64,000 bases of DNA from positions 90,658,923-90,722,922 of the forward strand of contig NC_057720.1 of assembly GCF_004010195.1 (NCBI RefSeq), given 5' to 3'. The position numbers and the translations under genes are program-made. Source of the stretch: Chiloscyllium plagiosum (lineage: Eukaryota). Positions 5,972 to 61,433 of the stretch are shown piece after piece. Each line of letters starts with the position of its first letter. Positions within the stretch are counted from its first letter, which is position 1. The notes under the pieces were generated by a model, which was not told the DNA's origin, searched no databases, and was given only the letters and a program-made list of their open reading frames with translations.

Positions 5972-6109
5972 CTGGAAAAGAGTGATAAAGTAATGACGCA
6001 TTTGTTTATAACCAGGGACTTTCAGATTTTTTTTCATTCAATGGCACACTTAGAGATTTCACAAAACATATTGGGCTGCTTGGCATGTGAAAGATGTGAT
6101 CATTCTCAC

Positions 6110-6237
6110 CTTCACCCGAGTGACGGCAGCGCTGTAGAAAATACTCAGGAAGAACAAGGTGATGAACGTGGAAGCAGTTGTCCAGATGTTGCTGTTATCA
6201 TCCTCATTGTCTTCAATCCAAGTGTGCTCAATTGAAT
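6110..6237 (-). CDS. Ig heavy chain (IgNAR-type) transmembrane exon TM1; canonical acceptor apparently mutated
   Basis: Reads (D)SIEHTWIEDNEDDNSNIWTTASTFITLFFLSIFYSAAVTRVK, an acidic spacer plus the CART-type TM motif. Donor is AAG|GTGAGA. The preceding dinucleotide at 6239-6238 is TG, not AG. Confidence 0.85.
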
Positions 6238-6689
6238 CAATGAATATAAAGCCGAGATTTAGATTGTTTATTGATCCAGATCCATCTATCTGCATCCAAG
6301 TCATGTAATTAGAGACATTACATCTTCATAAAGCAGTCAGGTATTTCTCAAGTGTGACTCTTATCTGTATCTATTAGTGCATTATTGACTCTCAGCAAGA
6401 AATTACAAATACTACCTGTACATGTTCTTTCTTCATTGTCCATGTCAGAACATTTAAAATCATTCTTTCTTTTAATCTGTTATTGAAAGATGTTATTATT
6501 TGAGGAATGTTCATTACGAATGATTATTTTAATTTTATCATTATATTTTAAATATAGGCTGTGACAGCAGTTTAGTTGAAAATTGTGACCATCACTGAGT
6601 AAAAGTTCAAATGTGATTCCCATTTTTATGTATTGGTGACCAATTGCTTGACAAATCATGAACATAAGTGACATCACAGTCAAGACATT

Positions 6690-7860
6690 GCTTCATATTT
6701 TTGTTTGCAGGATCTGTATATTTAGGAATTTTTTTGTACGTGTCCCTTTATTTATTTGATCTACTGTTTGGTGTGTTTGGTTTTCCTTTAATGTTTGTGC
6801 ATGTGGTTATGAGAATCTCTTCCATCACTCTTGCCCATGTTGGAGTCTGTGCGTGAATAAACATATTTCTGTTCCTTTGCTGCTGGTGTGCTCATGTTTT
6901 TGTGTACGTAAAGTTTGGTCTTTTCACATTGTGAAAGTATCATCATGCTAATATGCTACTTCCTTTCTTCCTATGCTTATCTTGTAATGTCTTCGTGAGT
7001 ACATGTTTTCATTAGTGCGATCTAAAATGTGTGCTTATGTGTCTGTTTCAGATCCTAGGTTATTTTCATGTATATGCTTAATAAATGTTAGCATGCAACG
7101 TCATGTTTTGATGGATGTTTATATTTATATGATGATGTCTGCTTGTGTGGCAATCTTTCCCAAACTATCTCCTGTTAAGCTTGTTTGTGTTATTGTTTGT
7201 GGATGCTTACTGATGCTTGTGCCCATTATCGTTATTTAATAAACGCCCCTCTATTTGTTGATCTATGCATTTGTATGTCTGCATGTGAGACTCTGAATTT
7301 GCATGTACATGTGACATTGTATACATGCTGATAAATATGGTTTAAAAATAACTAATTATGCTCCCTCTGTCATCGTATGTTGGTGATTCTGAAAATGGGA
7401 AAATAATGATATTAATGTTTATCTCTGTGCACTTGTGAGTCGACATGTGGGAGGACATTTTTCGGAATTTGTATCTGTGTGTTCATGCGTGTAGGTCTGT
7501 ATGCGTTGTGCTGTATGAATGTATATGTATTCATGTCCATTTTTGTGTTAGCGTGTGTCTATGTTTCCCATGGTTATGTGCCACCTGTTCATTTGGGCAA
7601 ATGCTTTTTTTTCGATGTATGTGAGTTTTTGGAATAGCTTAGGTGAGTGTTCAATTACCACTTGCATGTGTGGCTCTGTGCGAGCATGCGTGTGCGATGT
7701 GTTATCTATATGCACATTTGAGTGTGCACATAAATATGTGTCTTGAGGTGAGAGCCTATATATGTGTCTTCGCGTGTGTATTTGTGATCATCTCTCTGTA
7801 TCTGTGTGTGTTTCTGCTCTTTTACCAGATTGCAATTTTTATTATTCTAATTTTATTGTT
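6690..7860. repeat. Degenerate TG/TATG-rich low-complexity tract in the C5-TM1 intron
   Basis: Strong T/G strand bias with many gtgtgt/tatgtg runs; it produces spurious C/V-rich ORFs. Confidence 0.6.
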
Positions 7861-8964
7861 CTAATTTTTATGGATTACCTCCAATTAGATCTGACCTTGG
7901 TGTTGTAGGAAACATTTCCCATCGTTGTGGAGAGATAAGCGTTTTATGAGCAACTCTTCTGTTGCAATGATTGAATTTCTGTCTCTGAGACAAAAGGACT
8001 GAGTTCAAATCCTCACTGCCCCAGAGATAACATTTCTGAATATGTTTATCAGAAACTGTCTACTTGTGTTCTGTATGTGAAACAAAATGATTTCAGGAGC
8101 TCAAATATCAGAATTGATCGCATGTGCTTCAGAAAACTGAGACAAAACTATGGAATTCAAACTGAGACGATGCAAACACTAGTTTTAGATTATGGGGGTC
8201 AATGTTAATCATTTGTTAACAGGGCCAAGCTTGTCCAACATGTTTCAAAGGTATTATTTTGCATGGCAATGTTAAATCTTTGGACAGTAAGCAAGAAGCT
8301 GACTGTTCCTGTTAGTACCTGGGTTACATTACAGAGGACATCTACCATGAAAACTCTGCACAGGAAGCAAGAGGACAGACCATTCATCGTTCCCCACCCC
8401 TCTGCTCCATAACAACTTATCCGTCAATTCTCTTTGGTGTGAAAGTGAAGACATATTCTGACAACTCATGCGCTGGTGCAAGATACCTGGCAGTTCCCCA
8501 GAAACAAAGGTTACATTCAAACTGCTCTGCACTCTTTACGATTGGTATGTTCCAATCAAATTTAATTTTAAAGTGTCTTAAATTTATATTTCCAATTGGT
8601 GCAATGTGGCAGTTTAAAGCTGACATGAATTTTGTAAGAATGTTCAATCAGGGGAATCAAGAACACCAAGTTCTAAACTCGTGTTCTACCCTTGACATGA
8701 AATGGAACTGTCAGATTTTGTCACAGAGGGTTTTAGGATGGATAAGGTACTTGGCAAAATCCTGCAATGAGTGAGCTTTACTCTGTCTCTGACCTAGGGT
8801 GTATCTGAGCACAGAACATTAACTGCACAAGACACTCGTCCTCGACCTGTTAATAATCCACTTTAAGTCAGAGTGGGAAACAATTAATTCAGTACTTAAC
8901 TCACAGCTGGAGGAAAAAAGAACATTATTATTTCTGTTGAATTATTAAATGCAACTTTTAGATT

Positions 8965-8970
8965 TTTATT
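8965..8970 (-). promoter_or_regulatory. Secretory-form polyadenylation signal AATAAA overlapping the stop codon
   Basis: The minus strand reads TGT CAA TAA AAA. Confidence 0.6.
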
Positions 8971-9357
8971 GACATGAATTAACAGTGTCCATCAGTGCAA
9001 GTGAAATGTTTACAAAACTCGGTTTACCGCTGGATTTATCGACTGTTCTGTTGATGATCTTCAATGGAATCGCTTCATGTCCCACCAGACAGGAGTAAGA
9101 AGCACCGCTGGCCCACTCCTCCGCTGTAATGGATAACAGGTTGTAGATGAAGAAAGAGATGTTGTCACTCACCGACATCACCTCGGTGTTCTTGTCGTTA
9201 CTGGGATTCACCGGCTTGTCATTGTTTGTCCACATGACGAAGATCTCTCGGGGGGAGAAACCTCTCACTAAACAGGTGAGGGAGAGAAACCCCTGAGCGG
9301 AGATTTCTTCTGTTAGTGACAGGAGAACCGACACTGATGGCTCCAGCGGATTAATCA
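8966..9357 (-). CDS. Ig heavy chain, IgNAR-type, last constant domain (C5) plus secretory tail exon
   Basis: Acceptor ttccgcag precedes 9357. The frame is open: [77 protein letters not shown]. It has the C1-set Cys/Trp/Cys pattern, a tailpiece N-I-S sequon and a penultimate Cys. It closely matches shark IgNAR C5/secretory tail as recalled; IgW is the related alternative. Confidence 0.9.
9022..9028 (-). promoter_or_regulatory. Internal 5' splice donor for the membrane isoform (AGC G|GTAAAC)
   Basis: Phase-1 GT donor at the C domain/tailpiece boundary (KSS|GKP), the standard Ig secreted/membrane switch position. Confidence 0.8.
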
Positions 9358-9571
9358 CTGCGGAATATTTGAGACAAATATAAATCAACCAAAAACATCC
9401 TGAACTAATATCACAATTTCACTAAATATTAAAATACGCCATTTTTAATTTGGGATTTATTCATTTTCATTTCCTAAAGGAGCAGTATGGTACACATTAT
9501 GTTTCGTAAAAAAAGTAAAGTTTAATGTGAAAGTTGCCTCCATGTTTCCAGCCCACAACGAGAACATTCTG

Positions 9572-10071
9572 NNNNNNNNNNNNNNNNNNNNNNNNNNNNN
9601 NNNNNNNNNNNNNNNNNNNNNNNNNNNNNNNNNNNNNNNNNNNNNNNNNNNNNNNNNNNNNNNNNNNNNNNNNNNNNNNNNNNNNNNNNNNNNNNNNNNN
9701 NNNNNNNNNNNNNNNNNNNNNNNNNNNNNNNNNNNNNNNNNNNNNNNNNNNNNNNNNNNNNNNNNNNNNNNNNNNNNNNNNNNNNNNNNNNNNNNNNNNN
9801 NNNNNNNNNNNNNNNNNNNNNNNNNNNNNNNNNNNNNNNNNNNNNNNNNNNNNNNNNNNNNNNNNNNNNNNNNNNNNNNNNNNNNNNNNNNNNNNNNNNN
9901 NNNNNNNNNNNNNNNNNNNNNNNNNNNNNNNNNNNNNNNNNNNNNNNNNNNNNNNNNNNNNNNNNNNNNNNNNNNNNNNNNNNNNNNNNNNNNNNNNNNN
10001 NNNNNNNNNNNNNNNNNNNNNNNNNNNNNNNNNNNNNNNNNNNNNNNNNNNNNNNNNNNNNNNNNNNNNNN
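9572..10071. other. Assembly gap, exactly 500 N (likely a placeholder of unknown true size)
   Basis: Run of N. Confidence 0.99.
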
Positions 10072-49630: not shown

Positions 49631-50334
49631 ATTTATCAATTTTTCTCAATATTAAACAATCTGTAGTGATCCTCCAATGAACTGTTGATGTTTAGGTTGT
49701 GTCTAAGACTCTGCGAACATTTCCTTCAATGAGAAGAAGGACTAGTTCCCCTAGTTGCACAACTGAAAAATAAACATTCCTCCAGCATTGTTGCTGAGTA
49801 GAGTTGTTTCTGCTGAGGCAGTAGTTATGGTTTGCAGTTGGCTTTCCACCAACTGGTCAACAGTGAGACAAAATATCTTTGATCCACTGCAGAATCTCCA
49901 CCTGCTTCCAGTAAGTGAAACTGGGAACTCAAGGACCTTTTCTGCAGTCAGCTTAATTGCTGCCAACTGTTGTATCTGGCCGATTAAAGGGAAAATGAAT
50001 CGTCTAAGGTAAAGTCCTACCAAACAAACTATGTTTTCCCATTTAATCACCATGGACACATTTCACTTGACATTTCTTCTTTAAAAAGGAAAGTCACTGA
50101 ATACAGTATTCACTGTATGACTATCAGAAAACAGGACATTGACGTTCTGGCTCGTTCAGCCTGTTTATTGAGTATCTTTAAAGCTCCGGAACATGAAGTT
50201 AATGGATCCAAATTCCCACATTGCAGTAACATTTGTTATCATCTCAAAGTAAATTAACAAACTTGAATTGGTTCAAAGTCACATCACTTTGTTTAGAAAG
50301 ATCTTGACAGAACCGTTTCCCACAAGTTATCAGA

Positions 50335-50383
50335 ATGATTGTGTCGACAATTTTTCTAAATTTGTTACTGACTTTCTTATCAT
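50335..50383 (+). pseudogene. IgM-type VH leader exon
   Basis: ATG..MIVSTIFLNLLLTFLS T|GTGAG. A 126-bp intron leads to the V exon, and the spliced signal peptide ends CVQS. Confidence 0.9.
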
Positions 50384-50509
50384 GTGAGCGTTTTTGTTCA
50401 AGTCTCTCTTTGTTACTGTCTCAACGTTAGTCTCCCGCAGGAACGTAAAAGACACAGCCATCATTTCGTCAACAGAAATGCTCAAGCTTTATTTGTTTTC
50501 TTTGTAAAG

Positions 50510-50804
50510 GTGTCCAGTCGGATGTTGTTTTGACTCAGCCAGAGGCAGAGTCCGGCCGTCCCGCAAGCAGCCTGAAACTGACCCGTAAAACCAGCGGGTT
50601 CAATCTTGGCAGCGACTGGATGCACTGGGTCCGACAGGTTCCCGGGCAGGGTCTGGAGTGGCTTGTTAGCTACTATAGCTCATCCAACAGTTACTATGCA
50701 CCAGCGATTAAGGATCGATTTACTTCAAACAACATTTTAGCGTTGGACATGGGGAGCCTGAAGATCGAAGACACCGCCATCGCTTACTGTGCAAGAAAGT
50801 GTGT
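50510..50804 (+). pseudogene. IgM-type VH segment (probably V already joined to D1), defective
   Basis: [78 protein letters not shown]. The first canonical Cys is replaced by Arg (CGT), there is an in-frame FR3 deletion after RFT, and YYC has become AYC. Confidence 0.92.
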
Positions 50805-50842
50805 CACAGTGTTGTGCATAGCGGCATCCTCATACAAAAACC
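50805..50842 (+). promoter_or_regulatory. Recombination signal sequence, 22-bp spacer
   Basis: CACAGTG-22 bp-ACAAAAACC; perfect heptamer and nonamer. Confidence 0.95.
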
Positions 50843-51143
50843 ACTGACAAGGATTTATATCAAGTTGGTGATTTCTACCGTGGCAGGAGCGAGAAATAAT
50901 GTGAGATGCAACTTAACTGCAATCCAGTCGTGCTAGTTTTTACAAATGTATAATTTTTTCTACCTTCTTAGTGTTGATTGTCAAGTTAAATGCAGACCAA
51001 ACCTGTAAAAGTATTCCAAGCTTTCAAAATACAATGAATAGTAAAAGCTGAAATAATGTCCTGAATAAGTTTTAGAGGAGTCTGAATCACTGCTTACCAG
51101 GAAGTGATGAAATTATCTGCATTTTCCAGTTACAGTCTGTCAT

Positions 51144-51171
51144 AGTATTTGACACAATGTGTCTCACAGTG
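51144..51171 (-). promoter_or_regulatory. Recombination signal sequence, 12-bp spacer
   Basis: The top strand reads AGTATTTGA-12 bp-CACAGTG immediately 5' of the (D)J coding end; from the coding end it reads CACTGTG...TCAAATACT. Confidence 0.75.
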
Positions 51172-51222
51172 ATATAGCTCTTGATTACTGGGGCCAAGGG
51201 ACCATGGTGACAGTGACTTCAG
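51172..51222 (+). pseudogene. JH segment (probably D2 already joined to J); donor defective
   Basis: AT ATA GCT CTT GAT TAC TGG GGC CAA GGG ACC ATG GTG ACA GTG ACT TCA G = IALDYWGQGTMVTVTS. It is followed by TTAAG instead of GTAAG. Confidence 0.9.
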
Positions 51223-51754
51223 TTAAGAACGTTGAACTTTCTTCGTGACTTTTTAAAAACTTTATATTCATGTGACTAATTTCTGAATGAAATGAAACTC
51301 AGATTCTGTGCTGAGTTTGGTTTGGTTCGGATTGATTTTTGTTCAGACTGATTATAGACTTCAGTTAAGGCTCAGCAGGTAGTTAAAATGGTGATGATGG
51401 AGTCGTTTGCGCAGTGTATCTCTTGTTTTTTGATCAGATGGGCATTTTGTGTGGCTGGGTTACTTGAAACACCTAATGTCTCTTAATCAGTCAGCTATAA
51501 ATAATGTTTAATGTCAGTGACACCCTGACTATGAGTTTTATTATCAACAACAAACGCTAAGAATTGAAAGATGTTCAAGATATTACCAAACATGATTAAA
51601 ATATGCTAAAATATCATTATTCATTTCTTGAATATATGTTTTTACCATGATTATACTTTCTCATTTATTCTGTTTATTTTGTTAATGACAAGCAGGTTAG
51701 AAACTGTCATAAAATTTTCTTGCGGTGCTATATTTAATTCTGATGATGAGATTC

Positions 51755-61127: not shown

Positions 61128-61433
61128 AGACACCGTCACCCCCCACGCTTTATGGCCTGGTCTCCTCCTGTCAGGACCACAAAATCAGTTCTGTGATCTT
61201 TGGTTGTTTCGCGATGGACTGTTCCCCTGACGTCACCAAGGTAACCTGGAAAAAAGGTGGGGAACTATTCACGACTGGACTGAAGACTTACCCATCAGTG
61301 AGAAACAAGAAGGGAACCTACACCCTGAGCAGCCAGTTAACCCAGCCCGAGTCAGTGGTAGATTGCCCCAGCAAAACCTAATGTGAGGTTCAACACAGCG
61401 GGTCACACAAGAGCAAATAAATGCCATGTCCAG
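61128..61433 (+). pseudogene. IgM constant CH1 exon with two premature stops
   Basis: attgtag|AG ACA CCG..: [75 protein letters not shown]|GTAAG. TAA at 61379-61381 and 61418-61420. Matches shark mu CH1 as recalled. Confidence 0.92.

Follow-up and report, generated by a model that had tools for sequence, protein, structure and literature searches.

We identified on the + strand of the window, i.e. the whole 64-kb stretch of DNA (64,000 nt) analysed here, an immunoglobulin heavy chain cluster (locus L001) in which leader and V are followed by a remnant of D1, a recombination signal with a 22-nt spacer, an interval, a second signal with a 12-nt spacer and a D2/J fusion ending at 51222. Its CH1 exon, located by tblastn with the CH1 of the neighbouring cluster, sits 9.9 kb downstream. 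The features are the following:

50287..50293, no strand: upstream deletion junction, about 1.2 kb missing compared to the intact neighbouring cluster L019, short microhomology at the join
50335..50383, + strand: leader exon, open frame, intact GT donor
50510..50796, + strand: VH exon, open but degenerate frame, ending Cys-Ala-Arg
50797..50804, + strand: V-D1 coding joint, 8 nt past V
50805..50842, + strand: recombination signal at the 3' end of D1 with a 22-nt spacer, heptamer and nonamer both matching the consensus
50843..51143, no strand: D1-D2 intersegment DNA, from the paralogue alignment
51144..51171, - strand: recombination signal at the 5' end of D2 with a 12-nt spacer, heptamer and nonamer off consensus but typical of the family
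51172..51179, + strand: D2 remnant, first 8 nt of the 15-nt D2, the last base also fitting J
51180..51222, + strand: JH, 5' end trimmed by 4-5 nt, WGQG motif intact
51223..51224, + strand: J splice donor changed from GT to TT, from comparison with paralogues
61128..61433, + strand: CH1 exon of L001, two in-frame TAA stops, intact splice sites

No free D segment lies between V and J, and the only two signals there enclose a single interval of 367 nt from heptamer to heptamer, confirming the first-pass annotation, which had described two signals, an interval of ~370 bp and no free D. The 22-signal matches the consensus; an exact consensus signal with a spacer of 21-24 nt occurs once in the 64-kb window and in none of 100 shuffles. 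A generic signal scan of the L001 region, allowing at most three mismatches in total and two per element, picked up the 22-signal only and missed the 12-signal. The latter, already noted in the first pass, is present but departs from the consensus by one mismatch in the heptamer and three in the nonamer; both elements recur unchanged in the D2 5' signal of most paralogues and therefore represent the wild type for the family.

The CH1 of L001, which we take to be shark mu and not IgW, is of the C1-set and 85% identical to the CH1 of the neighbouring cluster. No later C exon of L001 was found up to the assembly gap just past the window end, beyond which the next cluster follows. The last C exon with tail of another cluster in the window has C-mu as best PDB matches, and L001 is probably of mu type as well, a label taken from this neighbouring exon and not from L001's own exons. 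A PDB search with the V exon returned only mammalian-type VH among the 60 matches listed, its Pfam V-set match is below the cut-off, and the Atlas search named only generic C1-set clusters. The C-mu-like last exon, with its secretory tail, lies together with a transmembrane-like exon at 6062-9418 on the - strand of the window, where an N run (9572-10071) separates them from the upstream exons of their cluster.

Searching the animal's own genome (3.56 Gb) gave 88 candidates, 40 of which were scored, and at least 85 matches, the latter being a lower bound. Typical paralogues match the L001 query in three blocks (1-317, 319-700 and 700-761). Unjoined clusters show the order V-23 / 12-D1-22 / 12-D2-12 / 23-J, with spacers counted by eye and a weak D1 5' nonamer, a D1 of 14 nt having one sequence in 14 of 18 loci and a D2 of 15 nt. 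Compared to the unjoined L012, L001 is missing the 437-bp V-D1 interval and the 407-bp D2-J interval together with their signals. The first-pass annotation had predicted that the remaining interval should correspond to the D1-D2 interval of unjoined clusters, and the alignment bears this out, with 50843-51143 being about 90-91% identical to the middle interval and the heptamer-to-heptamer distance of 367 nt comparing with 362-371 nt in 17 of the 18 comparison loci. It aligned to neither the V-D1 nor the D2-J interval, so that the first-pass reading was kept; the reading as a simple deletion, in which one of these outer intervals would remain, is ruled out by the alignment to D1-D2. Judged by sequence comparison, the configuration of L001 is thereby confirmed as VD1-D2J with RAG-type coding joints.

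All four breakpoints of L001 lie within 7 nt of the signal ends, V being trimmed by 2-3 nt, D1 and D2 by 7 nt each and J by 4-5 nt, with no signal remnant left behind. The V-D1 joint consists of one unassigned base and the last 7 nt of D1 with one substitution, in agreement with the earlier proposal that the bases following YCAR are a trimmed 3' end of D1. At the D2-J joint the first 8 nt of D2 meet the trimmed J, one T being common to both (1-nt microhomology), and no base is left unassigned. Here the first pass had seen the 5' end of D2 with N-like nucleotides fused to a trimmed J. The D2 remnant and the trimming of J hold, but the supposedly N-like GCTC is templated by D2 and J: D2 starts ATATAGCT in 6 of 18 comparison loci and J gives the C of GCTC, so that no N bases are needed. 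Had the ancestral D2 been the other common variant, present in L002, either a single subsequent substitution or the addition of two bases would be required to explain the joint.

Four ends located within 7 nt of four heptamers constitute the pattern of V(D)J coding joints. From these breakpoint positions, the established mechanism and PMC2193156 we infer that RAG made the joints of L001. Two ordinary deletions would be a different route to the same arrangement, and L001 carries unrelated deletions upstream and in FR3, both with microhomology; however, chance deletions would not bring all four ends to within 7 nt of a heptamer and at the same time leave the D remnants flush with their inner signals, and plain deletion is thus contradicted by the breakpoints. 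Alternatively, a VD1-D2-J and a V-D1-D2J cluster might have crossed over within the D1-D2 interval to give the VD-DJ form, in which case both joints would still be RAG-made, in different clusters. The V, interval and J-intron trees disagree on the nearest kin of L001, and its subgroup contains clusters of both donor types (L002, L004, L029), but its D2-J joint occurs in no other cluster examined and no crossover donor was thus found. We regard an origin by ordinary deletions or by crossing-over as very improbable.

Germline RAG joining at two signal pairs, followed by inheritance and decay into a pseudogene, is in our view highly probable. According to this model, RAG acting in the germ cells or the early embryo of an ancestral animal would have cut an ordinary V-D1-D2-J-C(mu) minilocus at two of the three signal pairs, i.e. 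V23/12-D1 and D2-12/23-J, the ends would have been trimmed and joined with little or no addition by TdT, and the VD1-D2J allele would have been inherited and spread, with neutral decay of the cluster into a pseudogene afterwards. The timing in germ cells and the germline fixation of D2-J are what we infer in this model.

Sequences of 4 of the 24 listed runs were compared, and 24 of 318 contig pieces were listed. The V-D1 joint is spanned with no difference by a contig of X1 (50743-50910, 168 nt) and a contig of X2 (50743-50902, 160 nt), the nearest paralogue having 6 differences from L001 within 50805-50910, and additional contigs of these two runs extend over the Cys codon and the deletion in FR3 with 0-2 differences from L001. 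X1 and X2 are two samples of one study that may derive from one animal, their tissue and kind not being on record; they hold somatic VDJ joints and can therefore not be taken as non-lymphoid. Both have no depth at 51080-51123, and the D2-J joint of L001 is spanned by none of the contig pieces listed (24 of 318) in the four runs. No second near-identical copy and no unjoined haplotig of L001 was present among 39 matches in the assembly, the tissue source of which is not on record.

VD-DJ as well as all other partial configurations arise somatically in nurse shark B cells and thymocytes, and the somatic 2R intermediate VD-DJ of nurse shark IgM has a segment layout identical to that of L001 (PMC2435157). 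One or both joints of L001 could on these grounds be somatic, with lymphocyte DNA having entered the assembly, and several joined copies in this genome are indeed found on small unplaced contigs. L001, in contrast, lies on a 94.7-Mb scaffold, its upstream region with the TATA-like box is deleted, and while the somatic nurse shark clones are each unique, carry N/P additions and come from functional loci (PMC2435157), the V-D1 joint of L001 recurs letter for letter in two samples and its locus is decayed from end to end. A somatic origin is very unlikely. At most one unassigned base is found in 14 of 16 assembly joints versus 5 of 12 joints of four somatic-looking VDJ contigs of X1/X2, as counted by eye (one-sided Fisher p 0.015 with an ambiguous fifth VDJ excluded; 0.044 if it is counted as N-free). 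The assembly joints follow the same trend as nurse shark light-chain germline joints, which show little TdT activity (PMC2193156).

Another cluster, L002, located on a different scaffold, is arranged as VD1-D2-J, its V-D1 joint being as long as that of L001 and agreeing with it in the first five bases. L001 and L002 belong to the same starred subgroup (5 of 26 rows of the interval tree, 3 of 15 rows of the joined tree). As sisters they obtain 85/67 support in the best (joined) tree, where the pair is not starred; the single-region trees leave the relation open or do not pair them, the J-intron tree being one that does not. The V and joined trees do not include L011, whose V block aligned poorly. 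With a sister support of only 85/67, the succession of V-D1 joining, duplication and D2-J joining is a lead only, and the trees hint at best weakly that V-D1 may have been joined before D2-J. The first-pass annotation had proposed two separate RAG-type joints fixed in the germline. Both look like trimmed coding joints of likely RAG origin, and for V-D1, seen in two samples, the germline state is well supported; for D2-J, germline fixation is only indirectly supported.

A contig of X5 (depth 5.8) bears on this second joint. It is identical to L001 in 148 of 148 positions at 51029-51176, a stretch in which the best assembly paralogue reaches 95% and L001 has a gap and five bases private to it. 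Past 51176 the contig proceeds into a D2 that is unjoined and followed by its 3' signal. Together with the joined form being spanned by no contig among the pieces listed, this raises the possibility that V-D1 is fixed in the germline while D2-J is a much younger germline joint which still segregates, some animals carrying VD1-D2-J. However, the 30 letters shown after the X5 break equal L002, and L001 and L002 share an identical run of 47 nt ending exactly at 51176. The contigs of these runs were built and simplified on 31-mers (PMC12424806), so that the longer shared run makes a chimeric path from L001 into L002 available. For a true unjoined allele, the chance of 30/30 identity to L002 is 0.05-0.14 at the divergence between L001 and L002, and such an allele would in addition need a different D2 base at 51177. 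The assembler probably prunes short branches of low depth. For nurse shark light-chain loci, a joined/unjoined polymorphism is reported to be absent among seven animals (PMC2193156, PMC2193153). The X5 contig is more likely an assembly-graph chimera than a segregating allele, and segregation of D2-J is unlikely. The more specific scenario, according to which V-D1 was joined before the duplication giving L002 and D2-J recently enough for the unjoined allele to persist in some living animals, is quite unlikely. If true, segregation of D2-J would constitute a joined/unjoined polymorphism at one Ig locus and direct evidence that RAG has recently been active in a vertebrate germline, and this at a locus already decayed and devoid of its TATA-like box, and germline RAG activity would be dated to the present population with its rate becoming measurable.

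The cluster is damaged along its whole length. The first conserved Cys codon of V is changed to Arg (50584-50586), FR3 has a 15-nt deletion near 50724, the YYC motif reads AYC, and the two in-frame TAA stops in CH1 are located at 61379 and 61418. The upstream deletion takes away a TATA-like box; the motif lies 40-70 nt upstream of the deletion point in all 7 paralogues inspected, base-changed in one and shortened in another, and its position suggests that it represents the promoter. Compared to the intact neighbour, L001 shows an even identity of 85-90% from the upstream DNA to CH1 10 kb away. This even divergence and the CH1 stops support a slow decay and rule out a hypermutation focused on V as origin of the V lesions. 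On these features L001 reads as a pseudogene. With V, the J donor, the upstream region and CH1 all broken, the remaining 22/12 pair cannot yield a working chain.

This bears on the suggestion of the first-pass annotation that the joining events turned the cluster into a one-step, light-chain-like substrate. Shark IgH segments join in no strict order, VD-DJ being a normal somatic intermediate (PMC2435157), and one more cut could thus close L001; the wild-type D1-22/12-D2 pair could in principle join in one step in a lymphocyte, the product remaining without a working mu chain. The description fits the geometry of the locus only. That L001 acts as a functional one-step substrate under selection would be compatible with both remaining signals being wild type for the family, with the open leader and V frames and with locus-specific contigs over intron, V and interval start in the RNA-like X1 and X2. 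Against it stand the Cys to Arg change, the FR3 deletion, the TT at the J donor, the two CH1 stops and the upstream deletion, and the contigs are unspliced, from runs whose kind is not on record. We consider such a function extremely unlikely. The unspliced L001-specific contigs of X1/X2 cover 50400-50910 of the window (leader intron, V, V-D1 joint and interval start) at a depth of 24-105, and could stem from sterile transcription, the upstream deletion notwithstanding, or from DNA contained in the library. One RNA run gave four partial L001 reads from about 2% of the run, too few to interpret.

Partly joined IgM clusters are a known class in cartilaginous fish, comprising the forms VD-J, VD-DJ, V DD-J, V D1-D2J and VDJ, and L001 is of the same kind. 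Among the forms that shark IgM clusters take in the germline, one review includes VD-J and VD-DJ (PMC5192425). Horn shark and little skate have further joined forms according to a commentary (PMC2193153), and a second review mentions clusters that are pre-joined in part or completely (PMC4279169). A germline VD-DJ arrangement has thus already been described in sharks, L001 being a further example. The accessible parts of PMC12227049 and PMC7677710 contain nothing on the VD-DJ configuration, and no genome-wide catalogue of such IgM clusters was found in the literature searched, subscription papers lying outside it. Compared to the heavy chains of horn shark, in which reading the joints is hard (PMC2193156), joined and unjoined copies are about 90% alike here and the joints can be read base by base. 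The germline-joined light chains of nurse shark NS4 (kappa) resemble L001 in their trimmed joints with little sign of TdT, and several independent joining events occurred within that one family, as in this genome. NS4 differs in being a light chain with one joint, in frame in 4 of 6 and with two expressed in pups, whereas L001 is a heavy chain pseudogene with two joints (PMC2193156). IgM1gj of nurse shark is a germline-joined heavy chain of IgM type like L001, but it is fully joined, functional and expressed in neonates (PMC5192425, PMC4279169), whereas L001 is partly joined and broken, lacking the intact V fold residues, splice sites and C exons of a functional IgM1gj-like gene. As the most likely reading stands, L001 itself is one more partly joined, dead shark IgH cluster and of little significance.

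At least one germline-type joint is present in 13 of 40 cluster pieces examined, many of these being fragments, and all three intervals are open in 7. The VD-DJ configuration occurs twice, in L001 and L003, with different joints. On three unplaced contigs, L047, L048 and L049 are diverged copies having the same V-D1D2J joints and forming a clade with 99% support in the J-intron tree; one V-D1D2J joint common to three diverged copies means that the assembly holds inherited joints, and by this pattern the duplication of the three apparently came after germline joining. The genome thus holds at least 16 readable, inherited-looking joints over most partial configurations and, with joined copies close to unjoined ones, allows studying trimming, P/N use and order of heavy-chain germline V(D)J joining.

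Further clusters show individual peculiarities. Just past the window and about 21 kb downstream of L001, L031:8186-8590 is a fully joined V-D1-D2-J without obvious N bases, its V having a 1-nt deletion compared to the majority and its CH1 frame being open. In L002 (G000:C8:40.83 Mb) the D1 3' heptamer is damaged and CH2 carries a frameshift and stops, CH1 being open. L043 (G000:C8 near 27.735 Mb) has V-D1-D2 joined with five untemplated and two palindromic bases, and in front of its unjoined J the heptamer is followed by two additional bases that form a palindrome with the start of J, which looks like an open-and-shut joint with P nucleotides. At L044:5300-5600 (G000:C8 near 41.677 Mb) an inverted block begins 1-2 nt beyond the coding end of V and comprises, in reverse complement relative to V, the J-intron, J, joined D2J, the D1-D2 interval and D1; with one end at the V coding end, the inversion may reflect RAG cutting with resolution at a site other than a signal. 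L028 (G000:C70258), flagged by the script, was not counted as joined: D2 and the D2-J interval are deleted between the spacers of the D2 5' and J signals, leaving a hybrid signal before an intact J, and a second partial match to the D1-D2 interval suggests a local duplication. L018, L020 and L023 have deletions within the V-D1 interval, D1 itself missing before its 3' signal in L020 and L023.
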